Part shown: positions 20,382 through 57,389 of the stretch, piece after piece | How positions within the stretch are numbered: the first letter of the stretch is position 1 | Layout of the letters: every line of letters begins with the position of its first letter | Origin: a virus | Taxonomy: Duplodnaviria; Caudoviricetes | Virus record (IMG/VR): IMGVR_UViG_3300025606_000003 | Coordinates: 43,036 to 107,035 of that record | DNA length: 64,000 bases | Direction: 5' to 3' (one strand) | Program-made: the position numbers and the translations under genes | The notes under the pieces: model-generated | What the model was told of the DNA's origin: nothing | Databases searched by the model: none | Seen by the model: the letters and a program-made list of their open reading frames with translations, nothing else

Positions 20382-21194
20382 TCACGTTTTAGGAACGAGA
20401 ATGTACGGCTTGCCATTGATAACGATTGTGCCGCCCAAATGCACTGACGCGTCGCTAGTCATCGGCAACGGGTTTTTACGCTTGCCATACAGCTCCACGA
20501 TTTCCCGCACATCGCCAGCCTGCGGCTCAGTGACATTCGGGTCGTAATACGGCGCCATCAGGTTGCCCTTCGCTAAATGCGGCAGGCCCAACGCGTGACC
20601 CAGCTCGTGGCAAATCACAGCCACGGCCATGTTGAAGCTCCAGTCCTCGGCTTCATCAAACATTTGATCAAGCTGGATGCGCTCGTGCACGTCGCAAGGC
20701 AGCTCGCTCCACGCCAGCGTGCCGCCACGGTCATCCAGGCCGGCTTTTCGGCCTTTACCTGACCTGGCCAGAATATTGGCCTGCTCAGCCACGTCAGCGC
20801 GTTTGGGCTCGATGTCGCACACCGCCGCCCACTGCGAGAACGCAATGTCGTAGGCTTGCCGGGCCTGTTCTACTGAAATGCCCGGCAGCTGGATGTTCGG
20901 GAAGTACGTGATGTTCTTGTGCGGCCACCGACACGTCGAGTCGGCCGCCGAAAAATTGAAATCTGGCAGACCGCAGCGGCGCCTAGCCATCACGCTGGCG
21001 GTTGTCACGCCAACGGTACCGTCCGGCTCAATGCCGTGAAAGCGCTGATATTCGCGAATTGCGCGAGTCAGTTCAGCGCCTTTGATCCCTTTAACCTGGT
21101 TCCAGGTCTTTGCGCCGAAATAGCCGAAACCGTAAAGTTTCTGCAGAATTTCGCGGGTGGGGATGACGTGTGAATTAGATGGCATCCTTGCCAT
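20382..21194 (-). CDS. Peptidoglycan-binding domain + matrixin (M10) metalloprotease
   Basis: AIREYQRFHGIEPDGTVG (PGBD); RCGLPD cysteine-switch-like; HELGHALGLPH; LMAP Met-turn. Confidence 0.85.
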   Translation of the reverse strand: MARMPSNSHVIPTREILQKLYGFGYFGAKTWNQVKGIKGAELTRAIREYQRFHGIEPDGTVGVTTASVMARRRCGLPDFNFSAADSTCRWPHKNITYFPNIQLPGISVEQARQAYDIAFSQWAAVCDIEPKRADVAEQANILARSGKGRKAGLDDRGGTLAWSELPCDVHERIQLDQMFDEAEDWSFNMAVAVICHELGHALGLPHLAKGNLMAPYYDPNVTEPQAGDVREIVELYGKRKNPLPMTSDASVHLGGTIVINGKPYILVPKT

Positions 21195-21231
21195 AATTTC
21201 GCATCCTTGCGAGTAATGCGGTTGTGAGCAA

Positions 21232-21648
21232 TCAGCCGTCGAGCGGTTTGTTGCGCTCGGCCAGCCACAGCAGCTCGTCAATTGCAGCGTCGTCCGCGCT
21301 GTCACTGAGCTCGTAAACGGCTTCCAGCAGCGGGTTGCGCGCAGCAAAAAGAGTATCGTCCGCGCACGTATTGCGCCAGAGGTCTTTCAATTTTCTGCGC
21401 AGCCGAATCAGCTTGCGCGCTGGCAGTGCCCGCAGCTCGCGCATGTCTAGCCGCAACTCGTCAGTGTTGCGGTGCTCGCGGCAGTACGTGAGTACCTGAA
21501 TCAGCACAGAAATCAACGAGATAATCAGCAGCGGACTGAACTGAATAGATTTGTCCATGCGAAAACTCACCTCGGACTGCAGCTGGTTTTGCAGCTGCGC
21601 GAGCGCTGGTGAATTCTCGAGCCGCTCTTTCAGTTCTGCTTCAGTCAT
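21232..21648 (-). CDS. Single-TM hypothetical protein
   Basis: Start MTEAELKE overlaps upstream stop; FSPLLIISLISVLIQVL TM. Confidence 0.6.
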   Translation of the reverse strand: MTEAELKERLENSPALAQLQNQLQSEVSFRMDKSIQFSPLLIISLISVLIQVLTYCREHRNTDELRLDMRELRALPARKLIRLRRKLKDLWRNTCADDTLFAARNPLLEAVYELSDSADDAAIDELLWLAERNKPLDG

Positions 21649-23449: not shown

Positions 23450-24823
23450 TTAGCGCCTCCATCGTGGCAACGACGCGAGCGCGCCGTCACCGTAACGTTC
23501 GAACAACTGGTCTTGCAAACTCGGCTGCGGTAGCTCTCCGCGGAAAGCTTTCAGCGCCATTTGATAACGGTAATTTGGATCCAGCTGCGCGCGCCAAATG
23601 TCATGATTGCGGCGTGTTTGCAGCATGAAATCGCCGCGGCGTTTGACCTCAGCCAGCTGGTTTTGAATATTCTCAAACACAGGCTTAGCGTGATCATACG
23701 GAATGATGTTGTTCACAGCCGCCGGGTTGAACATCTGCATCGCCTGATTGAGATAAACGCTGCCAGCTTTTTTGACGCCGGGCGGAATCGCAGTCGGGTG
23801 CACATGAAACCGAAACTTTGTTGGGCTGTGCGTAACGCCCTTGTACTTTGGCGTGTCGTCGTCGATCTGCCAATCGTCCGGTTTTTCTGTCATCAACTGC
23901 CGCAAAATATTGTTCTTGTGCTCGTAGCGTTTGTTGTCGGAATGCTTTTTAGCCTCGTGCAGTCGCGACAACGTAGCAGCGGCAGCAAACTTTTCTACGG
24001 TTTCGATTTTTTGGTAGTCGCGCGGGTCTTCGGACAGGTGATCCTTGGCAATTTCTTTGGCGATTTGGTCATTGGCGGTGTGTTCGCACTCATGCTGTTG
24101 TCCTTCGGTCGTCGTCTTCGGGGGAAACTTGCTGTCCAATACGTGGTCTGCCGCAACGCCGGGCAAAATATCTTTGACGGCTGCCGCTTTTAGCTCGCCG
24201 CGAGTACTACCTTGCACGGGCATTGCATCTTCTTCTTCGGCGTGCGTCACCCGGCTCACCGAGTTATTGCGCAGCACATTGCGGCGGCGGACTGCCACTG
24301 TAATGTGAAACTGGTGGTCCTCATTAGGCAGCGGCGACAGGCCGTAACTTTTGCGCAGCGCCGCAAGCTCAGGACTGGCCGCCTGGATCGCCCAAACGCG
24401 GTTCAGACCATTACTGTCAGGCGTGAACTCGCGAACTTGGCCCAGCGCATAATGAAAATGGTGCCCGCGCTCGCTAATCTTGTCCGGCCCGATTTTTTCA
24501 ACCTCGTCGCCGGTCATGACCGTAATGTGCGCGTTGAGCACGTCTTTGTCGCCCGGCTCGCCTTGAAATGCGCTTAACGTTGGCAGCTCTGCGCCAGGCG
24601 CTGTCATGGCGTCAAATACGCCGCGCACAAGCGCATTGGGCACGGATAACAACAACCAGCCGCTTTTTGACAAGTACAGCCGGCCAGACAGATAGTGGTT
24701 TACGCCCACGGCAGCCCCGGTTTTGGACAACCAGGCCGCGGCGTTCCCGATCGTATACGCCGGGTGTAACTTCAGGCTGGCCGGATCCCAAGCCAGCGAA
24801 TCAAGAATAGAAAGCCCATCCAT
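23450..24823 (-). CDS. Modular protein: 2H phosphoesterase + EHT..IA.DHL (DUF5661-like) + two further modules
   Basis: Two HxT motifs (NAHITVM, QFHITVA); ECEHTANDQIAKEIAKDHLSEDP; modules separated by LKAAA, EKFAA, VKKAG. Confidence 0.7.
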   Translation of the reverse strand: MDGLSILDSLAWDPASLKLHPAYTIGNAAAWLSKTGAAVGVNHYLSGRLYLSKSGWLLLSVPNALVRGVFDAMTAPGAELPTLSAFQGEPGDKDVLNAHITVMTGDEVEKIGPDKISERGHHFHYALGQVREFTPDSNGLNRVWAIQAASPELAALRKSYGLSPLPNEDHQFHITVAVRRRNVLRNNSVSRVTHAEEEDAMPVQGSTRGELKAAAVKDILPGVAADHVLDSKFPPKTTTEGQQHECEHTANDQIAKEIAKDHLSEDPRDYQKIETVEKFAAAATLSRLHEAKKHSDNKRYEHKNNILRQLMTEKPDDWQIDDDTPKYKGVTHSPTKFRFHVHPTAIPPGVKKAGSVYLNQAMQMFNPAAVNNIIPYDHAKPVFENIQNQLAEVKRRGDFMLQTRRNHDIWRAQLDPNYRYQMALKAFRGELPQPSLQDQLFERYGDGALASLPRWRR

Positions 24824-24840
24824 GCCGTTGCCTTTCTGGC

Positions 24841-24993
24841 TTACGGCGCTTGATGCAGCTCGCCAGCTGCGGCAGCGTGCACCCGGGCCGAGGTCGCCAC
24901 CGATGCGGCAGACGAAAAGAGCGCCAAACCGCTCATAAACGCCGCCACCCACGCCACCGCGCTCAACGTATAACGAAGTTTACGCTCAATCAT
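24841..24993 (-). CDS. Small TM peptide downstream of holin
   Basis: 50 aa with a hydrophobic core; start overlaps the holin stop. Confidence 0.5.
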   Translation of the reverse strand: MIERKLRYTLSAVAWVAAFMSGLALFSSAASVATSARVHAAAAGELHQAP

Positions 24994-26194: not shown

Positions 26195-26830
26195 TTAGCG
26201 GCAATATCGCAGGCGCTGCTCGCGCCAATATCTGGCCTGCGACGTGACCGGAATGTTGCTGTCGTCGTTGCCTTCTTGAAAACAGAGGGCGTATCGTAGC
26301 GGCATGCCCAGTGGCTGTCCATTGTGTTTGAGATAGTCGCGAGTCATCAGCACATCACAATGGTTGTAGCGCGAAATCGCGAGTAAATCCCGGCAGCCGG
26401 CTGCAGAAACCAGGTATCCGTGCGCGCCCCAGCCAGCTGAAACAATCCGCACGATGTACTTGGAAACCGGCTCCGTGCGGGCGTGCGAACTGTGGAATTG
26501 CCAGAAGCGCCACGTTGCCGGTAACTCGGCGGCAGCGCGCGGAAAGATATCTTTGAAGTCAGATGTGAATACAACGTCATCCTCGAACACGGCAACCGTC
26601 TCGTACCCGCGCTCGAGACAGAGTTTCCAGCAATGTCGGTGGCTGTCCAAGGCGCCTGCGTGCTTGCCATCAATGCCGCCGACTGTTTTAGCCGCGTATG
26701 TAATCGCAGACACACGCTCAACTGGCCAGGCCAGCTGCTGAAACCGCGGCAGCACCGATTCCCAGCGGTCGGCGCGCCGATCCATGTTGACGCAGAGCGC
26801 TGGAATGCGCCGATAGTCTACGAGGGCCAT
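26195..26830 (-). CDS. Glycosyltransferase family 25
   Basis: VNMDRRADRW, SH..W, VFEDD, WGAHGYLVS. Confidence 0.85.
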   Translation of the reverse strand: MALVDYRRIPALCVNMDRRADRWESVLPRFQQLAWPVERVSAITYAAKTVGGIDGKHAGALDSHRHCWKLCLERGYETVAVFEDDVVFTSDFKDIFPRAAAELPATWRFWQFHSSHARTEPVSKYIVRIVSAGWGAHGYLVSAAGCRDLLAISRYNHCDVLMTRDYLKHNGQPLGMPLRYALCFQEGNDDSNIPVTSQARYWREQRLRYCR

Positions 26831-26845
26831 GTTGCTGCCCCGCGA

Positions 26846-27247
26846 TCACAGATTCTTGGCAGCGATCAAACAGTCACGCGCTACAGCACGCAGCCAAAAC
26901 CATGTGCGGCGACAAAAAGAAGCTTTACCAGCAATCACGGCCGAGTAAGCATCGAACATGAGCCGCCGCCGGGCCTCGACCGAAACGGGATCTTGAAGGC
27001 GCGCCACTGCGCGCGCCGCGGACGCAAAAATGTACCGCGCAAACGTAGATTCAAAATCGCGCGCAGTAATAGTGCCGCCGGCATTGATGCCATCAAAAAC
27101 GATAGGCACATTTTGAGGGTCAAAATCTTTTTGCCAACCCGCGCCGCGCGGCCAGTGCGTCGAGTCAGGCCGCCACTCAGCGCGCGAAACCAATCGGGGC
27201 GGGATAATCGCGGAGTCATCTCGCCAAAATTTGCTTTCTGTAATCAC
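26846..27247 (-). CDS. Hypothetical protein
   Basis: AGGAG RBS, 133 aa. Confidence 0.6.
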   Translation of the reverse strand: MITESKFWRDDSAIIPPRLVSRAEWRPDSTHWPRGAGWQKDFDPQNVPIVFDGINAGGTITARDFESTFARYIFASAARAVARLQDPVSVEARRRLMFDAYSAVIAGKASFCRRTWFWLRAVARDCLIAAKNL

Positions 27248-27250
27248 AGT

Positions 27251-27616
27251 TCAGCTCCTTGTTACAGAATTTTCGTTGTCCGGTTTTTGTGCTGCTGCTT
27301 CTTCTTCGATCAAGCGCCGCAACACAACAACAGCCGCCTGCAAATCCACAGAAACACCGCTTTTGCCATCTTTGTCGCGTACTTGAATTGACGCGCCGCC
27401 GTCCGGTTGCGCAATAATTGCCCAGTTGTAAACGCCATTTTTACACTTGCGACTGCGCGCCGCAACATACACTGAATCGTGTTCAAAGCCTACGGTTACG
27501 TTCTCAACGGCGTTATCAATGGTGTTATCAACGGCCGGATTGCTAATCCACAAAAACGCCCTGGCTTTGTCCACCATAGACGCCAACATTGAAAAATGAA
27601 ACGGGGGCATATTCAT
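27251..27616 (-). CDS. Hypothetical protein
   Basis: AAGGAG RBS, 121 aa. Confidence 0.6.
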   Translation of the reverse strand: MNMPPFHFSMLASMVDKARAFLWISNPAVDNTIDNAVENVTVGFEHDSVYVAARSRKCKNGVYNWAIIAQPDGGASIQVRDKDGKSGVSVDLQAAVVVLRRLIEEEAAAQKPDNENSVTRS

Positions 27617-27641
27617 TGTTTAGCTCCTTGTAGCTTTTTAG

Positions 27642-28673
27642 TTAAAGAATCTTTGCCGCAATCAGGCACCCGCGGGCAACCGCGTGCAGCGGATCCCGAG
27701 CGTGCCGCACTTCTTTGACGGGCAGCGGAAAACCGCTGGCCGCCAATTTCTTCTCAAATACCGGCACAAAACCTTTGGCCTGGCTGGTGCCGCCCGCAAT
27801 CACCACCGGCAGCGGCTGTTTGAACTTCGGCAGCAGCTTGTGCCCGGTCATGGCTGCGGCAAGCTGTTTGGTGGTGTAGTCAATCAGGCGCACGTAATAG
27901 CTTGAAACAGCCGCCAGAATATGATTCTCGTTTGGCTGGCCGATCGTGAATTCGCCTTGTTCTTTCTCGGCTTGAACTACCGAGTCAGCCTCGGTAGTTG
28001 CCACAGCTGTCATCCGGTCGATCCAGTCGCCGGACTTAGTCGTGCTGAACATCACGGTCGGCTCGCCGTTGAGCATTACGCAGCAATTCACCATGCCCGC
28101 CCCGCAAGACAGCGCTACGCCTGTGTAATCATCTTGCTCGAGTTCGGAGTAGCACAGCGCCTCAGCTTCGTTGATTGCGCGGGCTTCGTAGCCACATTCG
28201 GCCAAAATGCCCTTTACAACGTCTTCGTGATACCCCACGTCAAAGTCGTCGTCTTCCTGGTCAACAGGCTGCGCTGGAATACAAAACACCAGCTTTTCGT
28301 TGGGCTGGCTGGCCTTGCCGCAGACCTGCTGCAGAATGAATGCCAGCACGCGCCGGGCGTCTTTTTCTTTCACAGACACAACGCCGCGGTGCATCGGCCG
28401 TTTCGCAGAGTCATTGCGCTCGATGGCTTTTTCGATGGCGTCTTTGCCCAACAGAATAAAGCTCCCGTCGGCATCTTTTACGAACACCCGCCCGGCCAGG
28501 CCCTTCTCGATCATCTTGGTAGCCACCGGCGTCGCGGGCTTGATCACGTAGAACGCGTCCCGAAAATCCGTGTAGTCCACGTTGCCGACGCGCACCTGGC
28601 TGGTGGTAGTGTTCGCAGCCGCGTCCTGCGCAAGCACAATAAAACTGGTACCGACGTCGAGTCCCTTGGCCAT
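27642..28673 (-). CDS. Actin-like ATPase (MreB/ParM/MamK superfamily)
   Basis: Phosphate-1 GLDVGTS, connect-1 INEAEAL, phosphate-2 SCGAGMVN, adenosine VIAGGTS, connect-2 PLHAVARG. Confidence 0.88.
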   Translation of the reverse strand: MAKGLDVGTSFIVLAQDAAANTTTSQVRVGNVDYTDFRDAFYVIKPATPVATKMIEKGLAGRVFVKDADGSFILLGKDAIEKAIERNDSAKRPMHRGVVSVKEKDARRVLAFILQQVCGKASQPNEKLVFCIPAQPVDQEDDDFDVGYHEDVVKGILAECGYEARAINEAEALCYSELEQDDYTGVALSCGAGMVNCCVMLNGEPTVMFSTTKSGDWIDRMTAVATTEADSVVQAEKEQGEFTIGQPNENHILAAVSSYYVRLIDYTTKQLAAAMTGHKLLPKFKQPLPVVIAGGTSQAKGFVPVFEKKLAASGFPLPVKEVRHARDPLHAVARGCLIAAKIL

Positions 28674-28676
28674 TTG

Positions 28677-29039
28677 TCAGCTCCTTTTGAGTTGGGCCAA
28701 CCTGTTGGCGGCCGAATCAATATCATCCTGCACGGTTTGTTTTTCGCCCAGCGCCACGGTCACTGGTTTTTCGAGGCCGGCTGTATTAACGTCTGTCACG
28801 AATTTCCGGTCGTCGATTGTGATCGGCTGCGGCTCGGCTGAACCTTTGACAAGCCACCGGCGCGGCTTTTCAATGGCGCCGGGCCTGGCCGGGCCGGAGC
28901 CTGCCGGTCCGTTTTCCAGGCGGCGCAGTTTCTCGTGCAGAGAATCAACCCGGCCGAGCAGATAGCCCAGCAGAAACGCGCCCGCCGCCAGTAAGCACCA
29001 CTGCGTCATGATGTGCGCCCGTTTTTGCCAGTCGGTCAT
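28677..29039 (-). CDS. N-terminally membrane-anchored protein upstream of actin
   Basis: TM LLAAGAFLLGYLLG, short coiled coil, C-terminal amphipathic helix; 3 nt before the actin ATG. Confidence 0.65.
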   Translation of the reverse strand: MTDWQKRAHIMTQWCLLAAGAFLLGYLLGRVDSLHEKLRRLENGPAGSGPARPGAIEKPRRWLVKGSAEPQPITIDDRKFVTDVNTAGLEKPVTVALGEKQTVQDDIDSAANRLAQLKRS

Positions 29040-29124
29040 TGATATCTATCCGACGCCAACGGCCGCCAGATCTACAGCGGTTTTAGCAAAAACAGGTAAC
29101 GTCTCACAAACTGCGGGAGCATCA

Positions 29125-29376
29125 TTAATTGCCCATGTACCGCACGGCGATGTAGGTGCCGAGAAATGCGCCGGCCGCCAGCGGAATCAAATACCACGGG
29201 TTGTGAAGGTAGCTCATCGTGCCGTAGGCGCCAAGACTGTACAGCACCGAGCTAATAGCGCTGGCGGCAAACGCCTGCTTGCGACTGACGCAGAGCACGT
29301 ACAGCGCATACAACACATCAAAAAACACGTAGACCACAAAAACAAGCAGCGCTGTCAACCAGTTGAAGTCATTCAT
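29125..29376 (-). CDS. Small three-TM membrane protein
   Basis: Hydrophobic throughout; YLIPLAAGAFLGTYIAV. Confidence 0.65.
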   Translation of the reverse strand: MNDFNWLTALLVFVVYVFFDVLYALYVLCVSRKQAFAASAISSVLYSLGAYGTMSYLHNPWYLIPLAAGAFLGTYIAVRYMGN

Positions 29377-29378
29377 GA

Positions 29379-30374
29379 TCAAAACTTTGGCTCGTATTCC
29401 AAGTGGTCCATGTACCGCTCAATTTGCCGGGCCACGTCATCGACAGTGATCATGCTCATGCAGTACGCGATCGCCTGACCGTCTTCCATAAATGTCGGCA
29501 GCTCGCACAGGCTGTTGTTTTTTGCGTCGTTGTCAGCAAGCGGGATCACACGGCTTTTCCAACAACCGCCCTGTTGGCAACACTTGAGCATGCCGCCAGT
29601 GTGCAGAAACTGGTGATCTGGGCCCTGCTCCCAGTGCGATGGCTCGCGGCCGCCCGCGAGCGTAATGTTCGCCCGGCTCTTACGGCCAAATCTTGGATGC
29701 GCGGGCACGGCGTAGGCCAGGTGCATTGGAAAACTCACGCCGGAGATCACGCCAAACGAGTTGTAAACCAGGCGGATCATCTGCCGGATATCAGTGCGGC
29801 CCACAAAGTTCAGCACATTGTCGCCATGGAGCAGCGGGTGCGTGTGCTCCTTGGCGCCGACTTGGACGAACCAAACATTGGGAAACCGCGAGACTAGCTC
29901 CTGATAGCGCGTGAAGCTCCAGGCTTTGGCGGTGTAGTCACTCTTGTGCCCGGCGTTGAGAATCCAGTACGGCACGTCTTTGCCGATCATTTCGTGCACG
30001 CCGGAAAACCACGCATGCTCTTCGGGCAGAATCTTGATCGCCCCGGCAAACTTGGCGGCTTTGATAGCCACGCCCAGCTTTTCACCGAGATACTCGTTGA
30101 AGCTTTCGATGAAGCGCACCGGGTGCGAGTTTGAGCGATGAATGCTGGGATACTCTGCCTGAATGACCGTGACGTCCGGGTCAGATTTGTCTAGCCGCGT
30201 GATGAGCGGGTTGCCGTGAAAGATCTCTTTGGCCGGGCAGTCCACGTCGGTAATGAACTTGCCCGGATGACTTTCGTGCAGGCTGGTCACAGCGTAGAGC
30301 AACATCACGATGTCGCCCGGGCTTTGCCAGTTCCGGAAGATAATCTTGCGCGGCACGGCGGCAGTAATCGACAT
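29379..30374 (-). CDS. Glycosyltransferase family 9 (heptosyltransferase-like)
   Basis: SPGDIVML, NPLI, KAWSFTRY, NFVGRTDIRQ, SFPMHLAYA. Confidence 0.8.
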   Translation of the reverse strand: MSITAAVPRKIIFRNWQSPGDIVMLLYAVTSLHESHPGKFITDVDCPAKEIFHGNPLITRLDKSDPDVTVIQAEYPSIHRSNSHPVRFIESFNEYLGEKLGVAIKAAKFAGAIKILPEEHAWFSGVHEMIGKDVPYWILNAGHKSDYTAKAWSFTRYQELVSRFPNVWFVQVGAKEHTHPLLHGDNVLNFVGRTDIRQMIRLVYNSFGVISGVSFPMHLAYAVPAHPRFGRKSRANITLAGGREPSHWEQGPDHQFLHTGGMLKCCQQGGCWKSRVIPLADNDAKNNSLCELPTFMEDGQAIAYCMSMITVDDVARQIERYMDHLEYEPKF

Positions 30375-30382
30375 AAAATGGT

Positions 30383-32308
30383 TCAACCGTTGGCGGCCAG
30401 ATATTCACGCATCTGCTGCAGCTTGTCGCCGCGGCCGGTGAAATGCACAAAGCGCGGCGGCGAGTCGAGGCCGACGGCAGCGTGGGAAAAATAGGTCGGC
30501 AGATAATTCCAAGTCAGCGGTAACAATTGCGTGCGTGTCGCCAGCTGCGTAACCGTTGTTTGCCTGACCGGCTCGACGGTGGTGGGCGGGTATCCAAGCT
30601 CCACCATCAGCGCCGCCTGCTCCCACCACGGGTGATCAATAAACTCGCGGGCGATCCAGATTTTTTCCAGCACTGGCAGCAATGCGCGAGTTAGGATCCA
30701 CACGCCACAATTTGGCACGGGGCCAATATCAATGTCGTGCCGCGTCATGGCTTGCCAACTAGAACCGTCAAACTCAGCGAAAATGTCTTTGTCGTCGCGC
30801 ATGATCAGCACGTCAGCATCGAGCCACAACACGCGCGCGTACTGCTGCAGCGCCTGAAACAGCGCTGGAATCTTGTACCACGCCGGCGGTCGAGAGCCTA
30901 CGAGATCGCAGGTCGCAAAATCGTAGCCGTATTTGCGCGCGTACGCGCGCATACGGGGCAATATTTCTTCGCTCATATTTGTAAAGGCGGGCCCGAAGTA
31001 TCCGGTGAGCACCAAAGTATCCGACGCTTTGTTCTCACCTGCCGGCGCAGGCAGCACGTTGTGCAATCGCGGCTTTCGTAACTCGACCATTTCGGTTTCA
31101 AGCTCTGCGGCCTTGTTCGCCGGCAGCATCACGATCGGCATTTTTTCATACATCATCCACTGGCCGTGCAGCATGCCGTTTTTGTAGGCCAGATCGGCCA
31201 AAATCGCGCCGTTGTGCCAGAACGCCACGCGCGGATCAGACTCGGTGCCAATCATCGACCACGTGTGCTCGACGGCTTTTTCACCGGCAGCAATCCGGCC
31301 GTGCTCCAACATCTCAATCCGCCGAAAATCGTGGCCGACGCGACAATACTGGTAATACCGCTGCGCCACGATTTGATTGGCGATTTCTTGGAATTTCAAG
31401 TTTGGCGCAGTCTTGGGCGCTTTTGACCAGATCGAGCGCAAATCCTCGAGATAGACCAGGCACTCGTTTTCCAGCTCGAAGCCGGGAATATGCTCATTGT
31501 GGCCCTGCAGCTGCCACTTACGAAGATTCCGGTGCTGGAACACCCGGCTGCCGTCGAAGTCGTGCTGACACATGGTTCCCGTGAGTGCATGAATACCCCG
31601 CCGCGGCATCGAGTATTCCTGCCCCAGCTTGCGCCACGCCATGTGAAACGTTTCTTTATCGCCGTGAATGTGCCGGTAGTAAAAACTGCTCCACTCGTTG
31701 AAGTGCATCGCGACGTTGAGCGCCTTCCAGCAGCGCCGCTTGTCAACTATGATCTGCCCGGATTCAAACTCGGGCTCGTCGCGATACGGCACGTTCACAA
31801 TGCGCCAAATAGCCCGGTCAGCGGCAAGCCGGCCGTAGTCAGGCCAGAAAATCGCGCCGGTGTTTTGATACTCCTGAGTATCAAACAAGTATTCCGGGTT
31901 CCGCACCGCTACGTTGTCGGCGTCCAGAAAGAGCACTTCCTCGAACGGGCAGTGCAGCAGCGCAAACGACTTGAGCTCCCAGCCGTGGAGCGTGCGCACC
32001 GGATATTGCTTCCGAACTTCATAGCCGTCGACGCATTCCACGTTGTACGGCTTTACAATAGCGCGCATTTCATCGTCGATCTCGTCGGGGCCGAGATGCC
32101 AGAATTGCGCCGGCAAATTGCAGCCGTGCCGACGCAGCATCCGAATCGCCACGTATGCGTTCGTGAAATACCGCGGACCGCCCGCGCAAATCACAATGCC
32201 GCGCCCAGCAAACCGGTCCTGGGGATACTCCTGCGGCGTCGCGACGTACGCCTCGAGCAGCTGCGTGTAGTCTGCGTCACTTCTGGGCGTGGGTTGTTCA
32301 GCTGTCAT
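30383..32308 (-). CDS. Fused GT71-like mannosyltransferase + GT34-like galactosyltransferase
   Basis: GRGIVICAGG, FEEVLFLDADN, IFWPD, ESGQ, GDKETF; second domain PAWYKI, VLWLDADV, NCGVW, WWEQAA, FVHFTG. Confidence 0.8.
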   Translation of the reverse strand: MTAEQPTPRSDADYTQLLEAYVATPQEYPQDRFAGRGIVICAGGPRYFTNAYVAIRMLRRHGCNLPAQFWHLGPDEIDDEMRAIVKPYNVECVDGYEVRKQYPVRTLHGWELKSFALLHCPFEEVLFLDADNVAVRNPEYLFDTQEYQNTGAIFWPDYGRLAADRAIWRIVNVPYRDEPEFESGQIIVDKRRCWKALNVAMHFNEWSSFYYRHIHGDKETFHMAWRKLGQEYSMPRRGIHALTGTMCQHDFDGSRVFQHRNLRKWQLQGHNEHIPGFELENECLVYLEDLRSIWSKAPKTAPNLKFQEIANQIVAQRYYQYCRVGHDFRRIEMLEHGRIAAGEKAVEHTWSMIGTESDPRVAFWHNGAILADLAYKNGMLHGQWMMYEKMPIVMLPANKAAELETEMVELRKPRLHNVLPAPAGENKASDTLVLTGYFGPAFTNMSEEILPRMRAYARKYGYDFATCDLVGSRPPAWYKIPALFQALQQYARVLWLDADVLIMRDDKDIFAEFDGSSWQAMTRHDIDIGPVPNCGVWILTRALLPVLEKIWIAREFIDHPWWEQAALMVELGYPPTTVEPVRQTTVTQLATRTQLLPLTWNYLPTYFSHAAVGLDSPPRFVHFTGRGDKLQQMREYLAANG

Positions 32309-32330
32309 GGCTTTCACTGCGGGTGCGGCG

Positions 32331-32849
32331 TTAGTTCTTCCAAAAAAAGCCCACGCCACGGCCGAGAATGTCGTACGTGACGCTGTAGATCGGCGTGCCA
32401 AGGTGCTGCAAAAAGCGCGGAATGTCGAATTCGTTGACGTCGTGCACGATGAGCAGGCCGTCGTCATCGAGCTTTTCGCGCCAGTACCGGATCAATTCTG
32501 GTACGACTGTCTCGCCGTGAAAAGAGTCGTGAAACACCACTGCGTAACGCCGCGGCAGCTGCAGCTCCGCCTCGCCTGTAATCAGCGCAAACTCTGCGTC
32601 CGGAGCCGCGGCCTGCCGGCGGGGCAGCGAGCCGGGATCTGGATCGCACGATTTCACGCACAGGCCAGCGCGGCTCAACGCCGCCGTGCCGTGCCCCCAG
32701 AACGACCCCACTTCAACTGCTGCGCGGCCGGCGTACGGTTTGACTGTCTGGTAAATCTGCAGAATGTGATTTACGTCTGTGACAAACTCGTGCGAGTAGT
32801 TCATCGCCCGCAAGGCCGCGATGTTCGCGTGATCTTTGAAATTCGCCAT
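32331..32849 (-). CDS. Class I SAM-dependent methyltransferase
   Basis: VEVGSFWGHGT, VFHDSFH, GLLIVHD. Confidence 0.75.
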   Translation of the reverse strand: MANFKDHANIAALRAMNYSHEFVTDVNHILQIYQTVKPYAGRAAVEVGSFWGHGTAALSRAGLCVKSCDPDPGSLPRRQAAAPDAEFALITGEAELQLPRRYAVVFHDSFHGETVVPELIRYWREKLDDDGLLIVHDVNEFDIPRFLQHLGTPIYSVTYDILGRGVGFFWKN

Positions 32850-32877: not shown

Positions 32878-33315
32878 TTACAGGCCCGCCAAAAGCTGGC
32901 GAATCCGCTCGCCGTCTTCGTAGCTGTCTTGGAGCTGGGCTTCGTAGAACACTTTCATGTACGCTGCCGCACTGCGATCACTGTTGGCGTATTCGTCAAG
33001 CCACTCCAGCCGCGCGGCGTAATTCTCAACGACCTCGCCCTCGATAGCCGCCGCATACCGCAGAATGTCTTCTACATTCTCGAGCCGCTTGAACTCGTTG
33101 GCGCCTGGCCAGACGATTCCGCCCAGGCCGTAAATACGGTCCTGGAATGCCAACACATGCTCGAGCTCGCCCTTGGCCGCCTCGTGCAGAAACTCCCTAT
33201 ACTCGGCGGCGTGCAGCCCGGTTACGGCGCTGGCGTGGTACAGATAAAAATCCAGGTGCATGCGCTCGTTGCGCAGGTCAGAGTTCAACAAAGATATCAA
33301 TTCGTCTCGAGTCAT
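32878..33315 (-). CDS. Ferritin/bacterioferritin-like protein
   Basis: LNSDLRNE, GELEHV...IYGLGG, IEGEVVENY four-helix pattern. Confidence 0.75.
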   Translation of the reverse strand: MTRDELISLLNSDLRNERMHLDFYLYHASAVTGLHAAEYREFLHEAAKGELEHVLAFQDRIYGLGGIVWPGANEFKRLENVEDILRYAAAIEGEVVENYAARLEWLDEYANSDRSAAAYMKVFYEAQLQDSYEDGERIRQLLAGL

Positions 33316-33794
33316 GCGGGCAGCTCCTGTAGAGTAACCGGAACATTCGGTGTCATCAATACGTGCCAGGCGTTTTCGTAGGGCGCGAGCTGGGAGTAGT
33401 ACAGCCAGTCTTTGGTGAAATCAATTTCGCTAGCCGGCACAATAAAGATCTTGTCGTGTTTCATCGTGACGCAAATCATAACGTCAATCATATTGGCTGT
33501 GTATTGTTTGTCGCGGTTTTCGCGCACGTTCTGGCCCGAAAATTTAGTCTTCCTGCGGCGCATGTTAAACCGGATTTGCGGCAGCGCCTGGCGGGCTGCA
33601 GTGCCGTCCAACATGGCTTTCACCTGGCAGCGCTTGAGTACGCCGCCTGCATCTGTGACAAGGTCATAGCCGGTATCTACCGTTGGGTGGGCTGTCGCGA
33701 TGCCGACTTTGAATAGCGACATCGCCGCGTAATGCGTTCCCGCCTGGCCCACCATCTGCGCTGTACGCTGCGGAAGCCTGAAATTAGCATCCAT
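33312..33794 (-). CDS. PD-(D/E)XK endonuclease (group I intron-associated type, free-standing)
   Basis: GQAG helix, GYDLVTD...RCQVK, Y....ID. Confidence 0.7.
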   Translation of the reverse strand: MDANFRLPQRTAQMVGQAGTHYAAMSLFKVGIATAHPTVDTGYDLVTDAGGVLKRCQVKAMLDGTAARQALPQIRFNMRRRKTKFSGQNVRENRDKQYTANMIDVMICVTMKHDKIFIVPASEIDFTKDWLYYSQLAPYENAWHVLMTPNVPVTLQELPA

Positions 33795-33834
33795 GCTTTT
33801 AATTCCAGAAGAACAGTAACAGGCTATAAAACGG

Positions 33835-34180
33835 GCTGGGCGCTGGCAGCAGAACCGCTCGTGTTCTGTTTGTGCTCGTGTTGCGTAGGGGCGAAGGAGG
33901 CGCTCGGATGGCATTGAAAACCCGGCAACCAGCGTTAAGCGCGGAAAGATATCTTTCCGCAGCATCCCGGCACCTCGGCTGTCCGATGAGGTGCAATCGC
34001 GACCCGGTTCGAGAAGTCGCGCACGCAGGTGATTTTCTTACGTTCGCGCAGCGGCTGGTAGCTGGACGCTAGCCGCGGCAAACAGCAAGCCGCCTCCCTG
34101 CGACTCTCCCGCATGTGCGCTCCTTGTGCGACGCGAACCGGACACAAGTTGTTACCGAAACACGAGTGTAGCCAGCCGGG
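33835..34180. ncRNA. Candidate large structured non-coding RNA
   Basis: ORF-poor ~410 nt gap with terminal long-range stems, several hairpins and an 8-bp loop-loop match; G-T pairs favour the + strand. Confidence 0.5.
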
Positions 34181-34207
34181 CTATACCGTCAAGGCGCGCT
34201 GCAGCGG

Positions 34208-34924
34208 TTACAGCCGGTCCAACATCGTGGCGACAACCGGGTGGCGCACGACGTCTTGCGTGTGAAACTCTACGCTGGCAATGTCTGGCGCTCCCTGCAG
34301 ACGCCGGATCACTTCAACCAGCGCCGGCGGCGAGATAGGCAGGTCGGACTGCTTGGGGTCACCCGTCACGATCATGCGGCTGCCCTCGCCAAACCGGGTT
34401 AAGAAAAGCTTCAGCTGGGCTGTCGTGGCGTTCTGAGCCTCGTCAAACACGCAGATCGAGTTCGTGAACGTACGGCCGCGCATGTAGCACAGCGGCGCCA
34501 GGACGATGCTCTTGTTAATCAGCTCGCGCCGGCCGGATTGCTTGCCGACCAGCACGTCCATGGCGTCGTACAGCGGCTGCATGTACGGGTTCACCTTGTC
34601 ACCAAATGTGCCAGGCAGAAATCCAAGCTTCTCGCCGGCTTCAACAATCGGCCGGGTCAGCACGATTTTTTCGGCCTGGCGGTTCAGCACAGCCTGAATC
34701 GCGTAGGCCATCGCCAGGAATGTTTTTCCTGAGCCTGCGGCGCCCAGCAGAAACGTGACAAGGTTCTCGTTCAGCGTGCGCCAGGCGAGCTTTTGAGACT
34801 CGTTCTTGAGCTCGATGACGAGCGGCTGGCGGGCCTGCTGGTCCCGATCGGCGGCGCGTGCCTGTCGGCGGGCAGCTTTTTCAGAAGACTTCTTGGGAAC
34901 AGACCGCGGTAATTTCTTGCTCAT
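34208..34924 (-). CDS. phoH: PhoH family ATPase
   Basis: GAAGSGKT, LGFLPG, MRGRTF, DEAQN, TGDPKQSD, VVRH. Confidence 0.92.
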   Translation of the reverse strand: MSKKLPRSVPKKSSEKAARRQARAADRDQQARQPLVIELKNESQKLAWRTLNENLVTFLLGAAGSGKTFLAMAYAIQAVLNRQAEKIVLTRPIVEAGEKLGFLPGTFGDKVNPYMQPLYDAMDVLVGKQSGRRELINKSIVLAPLCYMRGRTFTNSICVFDEAQNATTAQLKLFLTRFGEGSRMIVTGDPKQSDLPISPPALVEVIRRLQGAPDIASVEFHTQDVVRHPVVATMLDRL

Positions 34925-55236: not shown

Positions 55237-55309
55237 AGCCGGTGGCCGGGAACGATCCGGCGACACGCTGATTACAAATCAGCTGCTCTACCAGCTGAGC
55301 TACACCGGC
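55237..55309 (-). tRNA. tRNA-Thr(UGU)
   Basis: Cloverleaf GCCGGTG/CACCGGC, loop TT-TGT-AA; atypical T-loop ATCGTTC; no encoded CCA. Confidence 0.85.
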
Positions 55310-55632: not shown

Positions 55633-55776
55633 GAAACCCTCCTAGTAAAAGAACCAATCGAACACAACGTCTCGAACAGGGCCGTGGTCCGGCGGGCATT
55701 TTGATGCCCTCCCACAGTTTAAGGAGGATAACTTCCCCCTGTTTTTCGCGGCGCTCTTGCTGCGCCGCCGAGACGA

Positions 55777-56119
55777 TGGAGGTGGCGGGAATCGAACCCG
55801 CGTCCCGTGATGATTCAGAACAGACGTCTACGTGCGTGTGCTGTTGTTACTCACACAACAGCCAAGGCCAGCCGATTATCGGCGTCAGGTGGGCTACCAC
55901 CATCTTTGGCTGTCTTTCCAGCCTGCCGGCCGTCTTCCCGGCTTCCAGCGTGAGGGGCGAAGGTGTCACGCGCACCTCCCGGTCACTGCACTCAGGCAGC
56001 GAGAGCGGGAGCGCTGTTGAAGGCGCCAGATAACTGTGGGCGATTTTTAACGTGGCCATTCGTCCAACCACGGCACGCAATCTGAACCTCTTGCATCCGG
56101 TCGAAACCTTTACACCCCC
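55777..56119 (-). ncRNA. ssrA: tmRNA, tag (A)GAFNSAPALAA
   Basis: 5' GGGGGTG..TTCGAC pairs with 3' GGTTCGATTCCCGCCACCTCCA (G3-U70); tag ORF 56027-55992 ends ALAA-stop. Confidence 0.92.
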
Positions 56120-57056: not shown

Positions 57057-57140
57057 TGGCCGAGGCGGGAATCGAACCCGCACGGGATTACTCCCACGGG
57101 ATTTTAAATCCCGTGCGTCTGCCGGTTTCGCCACTCGGCC
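57057..57140 (-). tRNA. tRNA-Leu(UAA)
   Basis: Cloverleaf with long variable arm, loop TT-TAA-AA, GGTTCGATT. Confidence 0.92.
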
Positions 57141-57149
57141 CAAGGCCAG

Positions 57150-57223
57150 TGGGCGACAAGGGACTCGAACCCCTAACCCCCTCGGTGTAAACGAGGTGCT
57201 CTGACCAATTGAGCTAGTCGCCC
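57150..57223 (-). tRNA. tRNA-Val(UAC)
   Basis: Canonical cloverleaf, loop TT-TAC-AC. Confidence 0.92.
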
Positions 57224-57314: not shown

Positions 57315-57389
57315 TGACCCCGTGGGGATTTGAACCCCAGTCCCCACCGTGAAAGGGTGGTGTCCTAGACCAGGCTAGACGACGGGGCC
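57315..57389 (-). tRNA. tRNA-Glu(UUC)
   Basis: Canonical cloverleaf, loop CT-TTC-AC. Confidence 0.92.

Follow-up and report, generated by a model that had tools for sequence, protein, structure and literature searches.

What occupies the 412-nt spacer that separates a PhoH-like ATPase gene from a nuclease gene in an uncultured phage, and what could its role be? The locus lies in a 64,000-nt window (the whole stretch of DNA analysed here) of the 107-kb IMG/VR virus record IMGVR_UViG_3300025606_000003, whose completeness is estimated at 52%, which implies a phage of about 200 kb. Every gene around the locus is on the minus strand, in the order PhoH-like ATPase (34924–34208), spacer, PDDEXK_5 nuclease (33794–33312), ferritin-like gene, Methyltransf_24 and glycosyltransferases. 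An original prediction, made from this sequence alone, had proposed a structured RNA here, read from the plus strand and possibly partnered with or mobilised by the nuclease. That the spacer holds a structured RNA is borne out by strong covariation among homologues, and the RNA almost certainly belongs to a real family encoded on the minus strand. The explanation which, taken as a whole, we consider the best, with moderate confidence, is that 34114→33827 encodes a phage-specific structured non-coding RNA (ncRNA) of about 240–290 nt that had not been classified before. The element and the gene upstream of it are as follows.

33827–34114, minus strand: conserved structured ncRNA, 288 nt, 5′ end at 34114 and 3′ U-run at 33830–33827, delimited by an nhmmer profile of relatives.

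34208–34924, minus strand: PhoH-like ATPase, upstream neighbour of the RNA (Pfam PhoH, 1.6e-69).

The PhoH gene was used as an anchor for the retrieval of 38 related loci, and pattern scans contributed further viral and metagenome contigs together with one contig of a metagenome-assembled genome. The profile of the relatives places the window copy at 34114→33827, and full-length copies were matched in all the loci whose spacers are compared below. The family thus assembled comprises 29 distinct full-length sequences plus one divergent member, and 25 distinct homologues form the alignment A1. Against a PhoH identity of 70–73% the spacer DNA is 78–80% identical over about 300 nt; at 63–70% PhoH identity it is 87% identical over 170 nt, and at just 56–62% it is 80–85% identical over 100 nt; in tblastx comparisons this conservation scores equally in all six frames. 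Within a glycan-synthesis region that varies, the RNA is a conserved island, and it is the best-conserved nucleotide element of this fast-changing region in an uncultured clade of phages of about 200 kb. The strongly diverged member, L075 (positions 1440–1703 of metagenome contig Ga0172381_10039934; 55.7 bits, E = 1e-11), precedes a Methyltransf_24 gene by about 10 nt, with a GT1 glycosyltransferase also present, and its membership extends the family beyond the PhoH-anchored clade. Other pattern matches (L072, L077/L087, L079/L084 and L081) were discarded as chance, since they appeared by eye to be coding sequence and gave no significant match to R1, a covariance model built for the 3′ domain of the RNA. 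In all three genomes where this 3′-domain model matches, the RNA is single-copy.

A common secondary structure emerges from several lines of comparison. RNAalifold, applied to the 25 sequences, returned 33 pairs, of which 14 carry compensatory changes, and both the group-wise folds and the independent minimum free energy (MFE) folds of each homologue converge on one architecture, which the MFE fold of 33827–34114 reproduces as well. From the 5′ end it runs through P1 (5 bp), AGAG, P2, P3, P4, CCG and P5, the last enclosing P6/P7, a 21-nt single strand and P8, before closing with the 3′ strand of P1 and the U-run. In the window, these parts are located as listed.

34108–34112, minus strand: 5′ strand of P1, GCGGG, followed by the invariant junction AGAG (34107–34104).

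34024–34102, minus strand: P2 domain, forming a long and irregular hairpin whose base helix is CGCAGG/CCUGCG (34102–34097 with 34029–34024).

33998–34021, minus strand: P3 hairpin CGCGAC...GUCGCG; a hairpin of 6–10 bp stands here in every lineage, with unrelated sequences.

33970–33994, minus strand: P4 hairpin GCACCUC...GAGGUGC with loop L4 (33987–33977); several pairs compensatory (RNAalifold, columns 137–163).

33941–33960, minus strand: P4a, palindromic hairpin of 20 nt (GCGGAAAGAUAUCUUUCCGC), inserted in P5 as a branch specific to certain lineages (9 of 25 homologues).

33928–33935, minus strand: 5′ strand of P5, ACGCUGGU, pairing with 33847–33841.

33889–33923, minus strand: P6 (GGGU/GCCC), enclosing P7 (33913–33901) and the conserved CCUCCUU (33900–33894).

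33848–33888, minus strand: near-invariant single strand CUACGCAACACGAGCACAAAC, then P8 hairpin (33870–33848) with the invariant loop ACGAGCG.

33841–33847, minus strand: 3′ strand of P5, GCCAGCG.

33831–33835, minus strand: 3′ strand of P1, CCCGU, followed by the U-run.

Compensatory changes maintain these helices across the homologues. P1 covaries (GCGGG/CCCGC, GCAGG/CCUGC, GCGGA/UCCGC and ACGGG/CCCGU), and the base helix of P2 is exchanged from group to group (CGCAGG/CCUGCG, UGCGG/CCGCA and CAGCAAG/CUUGUUG), the P2–P3 layout being recovered in 25 of 27 independent native folds against 15 of 1080 shuffles. When 29 sequences were re-aligned on R1, 93.9% of the cells of the 3′ domain were paired, compared with 29–53% after sliding the partners by 1–3 columns; moreover, 19 of the 32 pairs had changed on both sides, and not one of 500 shuffles attained any observed measure. 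In this alignment the P5 pair types are CG in 17 and UA in 12 sequences, GC in 19 and AU in 10, and CG in 19 and UA in 10, all three pairs of P7 show both-sided changes, and P8 is 99.1% paired, with compensatory changes in 4 of its 8 pairs and one pair that is A-U in 16 sequences and G·U in 13. In P4a the arms are flipped in one homologue (L061, UUUGAUAUCAAA) with GAUAUC retained. Folding energy, on either strand and for both the spacer and the exact RNA, was no better than that of dinucleotide shuffles (z = −0.03, −0.27 and −0.62); at such chance values in GC-rich DNA, the structural evidence is comparative.

The comparison also reveals a contact between two hairpin loops.

33986–33982 and 33908–33904, minus strand: kissing cores, UCGGA of L4 with UCCGA of L7.

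In every homologue the L4 core is complementary to the L7 core through 4–8 Watson-Crick pairs whose two sides change jointly. Seven versions were found, namely UCGGA/UCCGA, UCAGACA/UGUCUGA, CUUGG/CCAAG, CUUGA/UCAAG, CUUGAA/UUCAAG, UUGA/UCAA and CCUGG/CCAGG, the last being that of L075. On these aligned sequences, L4–L7 is a tertiary contact proven by covariation. A kissing loop, as foreseen by the original prediction, exists, with other partners: the proposed pair, at 34004 and 34134, joins the P3 loop to the hairpin of a non-conserved leader and is a perfect 8-mer in the window, of a kind estimated to arise by chance about once per 400 nt, and its complementarity, as judged by eye, shrinks to 6 and 5 nt in two close relatives and vanishes in the others. 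Further tertiary pairings were sought by eye and none covaried, including CCUCCUU with the P2 5′ purine run, the leader GGAGG or downstream Shine-Dalgarno (SD) sequences, the CUCCC loop of P2 with GGGAG of P1/J1-2, GCUGG with CCAGC, and GUUGC with GCAAC. CCUCCUU itself varies among homologues (CCCCUUU, CUUCCUU and CGUCCUU). About 60 nucleotides, mostly unpaired, are invariant, among them AGAG, AGCC of L4, CCUCCUUCGCCCC, ACACGAGCACAAGC and the ACGAGCG loop.

Regarding the strand, G·U cells in the modelled helices number 101 against 25 A·C cells, and a plus-strand reading lowers the paired share from 93.9% to 85.7%. This asymmetry, together with co-orientation with the genes, places the RNA on the minus strand and not on the plus strand, as had been claimed; the TATAAA at 33825, mentioned in support of that claim, is the complement of the U-rich 3′ tail and not a promoter. 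The strings quoted at the time are all present where they were located, and several of the stems reappear with comparative support on the minus strand: CGCAGG/CCTGCG is the base of P2, GCGGCTGG/CTAGCCGC its distal part, GCGAC/GTCGC is P3 (34021–33998), GCACCTC/GAGGTGC is P4 (33994–33970), and the 20-bp palindrome is P4a (33960–33941), an insertion found in 9 of 25 homologues. The extent of about 340 nt (33835–34180) has to be revised, the conserved element measuring 288 nt (34114→33827). Both closing stems (33842/34171 and 33856/34159) draw on the non-conserved 34115–34180, which overlaps a promoter-like site (34192–34165); 33842–47 pairs instead with 33928–33934 in P5, and 33856–65 makes up the loop and stem of P8, so that stems competing with the covarying P5 and P8 are left unsupported. 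The CTTGTG/CACAAG hairpin and GCGCAC/GTGCGC use the same non-conserved stretch.

Does this RNA belong to any known family? Rfam 15 holds 4227 models, including RNase P, group I and II introns, signal recognition particle (SRP) RNA, 6S, tmRNA, GOLLD, ROOL, HEARO, raiA, OLE and riboswitches, and membership was judged by a covariance-model score at or above the gathering threshold, which the RNA reached for none of them. The scan of the window found one tmRNA and four tRNAs, all away from the RNA locus, and at E ≤ 10 the region and three divergent homologues gave only short chance hairpin matches (the L31 leader at 13.7 bits, and miRNA models). The RNA is, by these profile searches, a new family without detectable relation to any curated one, in agreement with the failure of the original prediction to match it to RNase P, group I intron, SRP or 6S. 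A resemblance to 16S rRNA, suspected on the basis of UGGGUU..GUCC, CGCAAC..GAGC.CAA, UGCCAGCG and CCUCCUU, was rejected on testing: as for a fragment or mimic of 16S rRNA (3′ major domain, anti-SD), the small-subunit rRNA model finds nothing in the phage record, and R1, run unfiltered over E. coli rrsA, returned no match better than E = 0.63 and none in the region under suspicion. Full-text literature searches found no description of the RNA. From viral sequences, for the most part from IMG/VR, 10,006 structured-RNA candidates were predicted (PMC10690425), among which this family may figure uncharacterised.

How is the RNA likely to be expressed? Two features precede it.

34165–34192, minus strand: predicted sigma70-like promoter TTGACG-16-TACACT, predicted start near 34158 (consensus scan).

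34115–34158, minus strand: non-conserved leader with the hairpin CUUGUG...CACAAG (34152–34125), conservation beginning only at about 34131–34114.

In eight relatives TTGCGC-17-TAnAnT, with unrelated spacers, is found at the same place, about 35 nt before P1, and TTGCGC-N16-18-TAnAnT is not a general motif of the window (1 match against 0.74 expected). At the other end, P1 is followed within 0–4 nt by three or more consecutive U in about 20 of 25 homologues, and the next open reading frame (ORF) mostly starts 10–35 nt downstream of the RNA. The tRNA-Ser(UGA) genes of L037 (5518–5605) and L035 (5536–5623) begin 2 nt beyond the 3′ tail of the RNA, where RNase P cleavage would define the 3′ end of the RNA. 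The flanking genes change with the lineage and comprise the nuclease, the ferritin-like gene, an unknown gene, a methyltransferase, a glycosyltransferase, Glf, a radical-SAM/GT25 fusion and tRNA-Ser; the ferritin-like gene itself stands downstream of the RNA in some lineages and upstream in others. The wider neighbourhood is always one of glycan synthesis and the immediate downstream gene is not constant. A CACGGAG(G) motif is present 8–12 nt before P1 in groups A and B of the homologues (34115–34125 in the window, and the leaders of relatives); it is SD-like, has no conserved ORF behind it, and may form a small leader hairpin (CCC..GGG, CUC..GAG).

The original prediction had considered the adjacent nuclease a possible partner or mobiliser of the RNA.

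33312–33794, minus strand: I-Ssp6803I-type PD-(D/E)XK nuclease (Pfam PF11645), flanked by the RNA and the ferritin-like gene.

The PF11645 profile matches this protein at 4.7e-10 and 40.1 bits, above the curated cut-off of 26.1, and its best PDB match is I-Ssp6803I (2OST), aligned over the full length (residues 14–147, E = 0.027). A PDDEXK_5 gene is found near just 5 of the 25 distinct RNA-bearing loci, 33–825 nt downstream of the RNA, with alleles 34–81% identical to each other, and a further locus (L030) has the nuclease and lacks the RNA. In these five lineages and L030 the gene always falls in the stretch from PhoH to the glycan cluster, its presence at this one genomic site being sporadic. 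With a profile score above the cut-off, a full-length alignment and such a patchy distribution, the gene can be read as a free-standing mobile homing endonuclease that landed beside an RNA gene, in which it differs from I-Ssp6803I, located in a tRNA group I intron. The putative endonuclease may use the conserved RNA gene or its junction as its target. The proposed partnership does not agree with this distribution, and the RNA is very probably independent of the nuclease. The original model in its entirety (a plus-strand RNA of about 340 nt at 33835–34180, with its closing stems, the 34004/34134 kissing loop and the nuclease as partner or mobiliser) is accordingly very improbable. Its quoted strings exist, Watson-Crick helices are equally good on either strand and the nuclease does lie downstream of the RNA in five lineages; it is countered by the G·U excess over A·C, by the conflict of the closing stems with the covarying P5 and P8, by the lack of conservation of 34115–34180 and its overlap with the promoter-like site, and by a nuclease that most RNA-bearing loci lack and that L030 carries in the absence of the RNA.

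As regards function, our preference, tentative and held at somewhat less than even confidence, goes to a stable RNA that would act in trans over one acting in cis, a view drawn from the sequences compared. Host RNA polymerase would transcribe it from its own sigma70-type promoter, about 35–45 nt upstream, in the window lineage and eight others, and its 3′ end would lie at the U-run after P1 or, in one lineage, at the 5′ end of the tRNA 2 nt further on. The RNA would then be free and stable, and the 60 or so invariant, mostly unpaired nucleotides would offer a protein or RNA partner a binding or active surface. What favours an action in trans is that the RNA is retained while its neighbours change, that it can adjoin a tRNA gene, and that it has a putative promoter of its own in many lineages and a U-tail; its large size and many conserved unpaired positions, as in phage-borne ornate RNAs (PMC12286853), point the same way. 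Several observations weigh against this account or against the strength of its evidence. A canonical terminator is mostly lacking between the RNA and the next ORF, and in lineages B and C the RNA starts 0–50 nt past the ferritin-like stop codon with no recognisable promoter; such a layout also fits a cis leader or an intra-operon element. A junction with a kissing loop is typical of riboswitch aptamers. In a complete 205-kb relative (G001, the genome of L013, 205010 bp) nothing matched the RNA model at E ≤ 0.01, from which it follows that the RNA is dispensable for that phage. The homologues all come from one clade, their shared context not being independent evidence. As to the structure, the 3′-domain test alignment had been fitted to the model, and nine group-A rows hold the P4a hairpin, and not P4, in its P4 columns, so that group-A support for P4 rests on the RNAalifold alignment; P6 never varies and hence cannot be tested by covariation, and the conserved single strands, all invariant, are likewise beyond its reach.

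The alternative to action in trans to be weighed most carefully is a cis-acting leader or intra-operon element for the downstream ferritin-like and glycan-synthesis genes, which we consider doubtful. It could take the form of a riboswitch-like attenuator, in which ligand-stabilised P1 plus the U-run would stop transcription, or of a processive-antitermination or processing element. Nine lineages show a succession of putative promoter, RNA, U-run and then an SD sequence and start codon 10–35 nt on. The RNA is part of an array of genes on one strand in which glycosyltransferase, Glf and Methyltransf_24 genes abound, and this holds even in the divergent L075, with its methyltransferase about 10 nt after the RNA. 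Furthermore, lysine and cobalamin aptamers are built as P1-closed junctions locked by a loop-loop contact, and polysaccharide operons are well known as targets of antitermination RNAs, EAR being one. Nevertheless, the immediate downstream gene is inconstant, being a tRNA in two lineages and an unknown gene without an SD sequence in the largest group, and the ferritin-like gene is upstream of the RNA in groups B and C. Inspection revealed no alternative pairing that could act as an expression platform, CCUCCUU does not covary with downstream SD sequences or the leader GGAGG, and a length of 240–290 nt exceeds almost all aptamers. Ribozyme-like or other roles take up the rest of the probability. 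That the RNA represents a new functional class, either a ligand-sensing or catalytic RNA gating the phage glycan-synthesis operon or an RNA assembling into a higher-order particle, appears rather unlikely; in the particle version, L4–L7 and, in some lineages, the palindromic GAUAUC loop would be the assembly interfaces.

Three further explanations would account for the locus otherwise, each of them very improbable. A small protein could start at the ATG at 34114, which follows AAGGAG and opens an ORF of 59 codons in the window and of 84–98 codons in some relatives; an SD-like GGAG stands 5–9 nt before the ATG in groups A and B, and the ORFs cover the whole element in L007, L005, L061 and L055. 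The start codon is absent, however, in 13 of 29 homologues (ACG, TTT, CTG, AAG, TTA or TAT instead), the frame ends after 9–26 codons in 14 sequences, most homologues have stops in all frames of the region, and one-nucleotide indels and the 34–37 nt P4a insertion disrupt any frame. Since the tblastx conservation is equal in six frames and the substitutions are compensatory across helices, and no ORF was found to be conserved, a conserved small ORF being among the findings that would have refuted the original prediction, coding is scarcely credible. No better placed is a group I intron, degenerate or otherwise unusual, or the remnant of one, that once carried the endonuclease gene. PF11645 is the family of the intron-encoded I-Ssp6803I, and the 5′ GCGGGAGAG presumably resembles a P3-J3/4 stretch; yet the Rfam group I model was unmatched at E ≤ 10 in four members, all helices are nested except for L4–L7 with no P3/P7 pseudoknot, the endonuclease ORF is outside the RNA, and the flanks are different complete genes in each lineage, leaving no exons to join. 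Conservation could also act on the DNA, as a homing-endonuclease recognition site, a replication or packaging site, or an operator around an iterated palindrome, which we hold to be just as remote as the original model. Homing endonucleases do choose highly conserved targets, and AAGATATCTT is iterated in the window far above expectation, with six exact copies (467, 4486, 11363, 26544, 33946 and 62806) and one-mismatch copies at 24165, 30220, 42754, 46000 and 62832, in total 11 against 0.5 expected. Nine helices and one loop-loop contact with compensatory changes are not what a DNA site produces, and neither is the bias of G·U over A·C; moreover, the palindrome arm is absent from 16 of the 25 homologues, and most RNA-bearing genomes lack the nuclease. 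As to the palindrome itself, AAGATATCTT is often extended to (G)CAAAGATATCTTTG(C), one copy is the tip of the P4a hairpin, and by their coordinates at least some copies seem to be within long ORFs.

The phage that carries the RNA has no close cultured relative: PhoH is less than 50% identical to all phage records of a GenBank-derived collection, and blastn gave a weak match only. A search of PHROGs gave no function to the neighbouring genes. Downstream of the RNA a run of glycan-related genes extends over 26195–32849 on the minus strand.

32331–32849, minus strand: Methyltransf_24.

30383–32467, minus strand: 694-aa protein with a Mannosyl_trans3 domain and weak, sub-threshold GT8/GT34 matches.

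26195–26830, minus strand: GT25.

The same region holds Glf, GT1 and a GT25/radical-SAM fusion in relatives, and the complete relative G001 carries PhoH and the ferritin-like gene with 2.2 kb between them. Elsewhere in the window, on the minus strand, a 343-aa protein (27642–28673) matches Volactin, an actin-like family (Pfam, 1.1e-61), an unusual phage cargo; a 500-aa protein (23450–24952) combines a 2H phosphoesterase 'Swiss Army Knife' domain with DUF5661; and a matrixin-type metallopeptidase fused to a peptidoglycan-binding domain (20382–21347) could be a lysin. The phage has its own one-piece tmRNA (55774–56119, minus strand, 110.7 bits) and at least four tRNAs (55237–55309, 57057–57140, 57150–57223 and, on the minus strand, 57315–57389), about 20 kb from the structured RNA.

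Several known systems offer a measure of comparison. GOLLD and ROOL are large ornate ncRNAs, often carried by phages (PMC12286853). Like them, the RNA described here is a large multi-helix phage RNA with many invariant unpaired nucleotides, sometimes beside tRNA genes and with no protein partner encoded alongside; it differs in that the Rfam models are unmatched, in being two to three times smaller, and in that a possible dimerising palindromic GAUAUC loop is restricted to the P4a-bearing lineages. With the lysine and cobalamin aptamers it seems to share a P1-closed multi-helix junction, a purine-rich strand after P1 and a kissing loop locking two arms, whereas it has no Rfam match, constant downstream gene, identifiable expression platform, B12 box or L-box core. 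The eps-associated RNA (EAR) and HK022 put are also structured RNAs between same-strand genes of long polysaccharide or phage operons, both being cis-acting processive antitermination elements; at about 120 and 70 nt, respectively, they are much smaller and unrelated in sequence. In T4, a free-standing homing endonuclease, segB, is lodged in the tRNA region beside the phage stable RNA genes C and D. The likeness is one of analogy; that endonuclease is of the GIY-YIG type and the RNAs measure about 120–140 nt. On this reading, the present locus is a clear example of a homing endonuclease settling beside a conserved RNA gene.

RNAs of more than 200 nt with a complex fold are rare, and earlier classes of this kind have proved to be ribozymes, riboswitches, guide RNAs or assemblies made of RNA alone. 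About 30 distinct sequences make up the family so far, all of them from one clade. With a well-determined secondary structure, a tertiary contact proven by covariation and ends that are probably defined, the RNA is amenable to study in vitro without culturing the phage, through in vitro transcription, chemical probing, ligand screens and cryo-EM. If the particle version of its function were true, it would be a jumbo-phage counterpart of the ornate RNAs.

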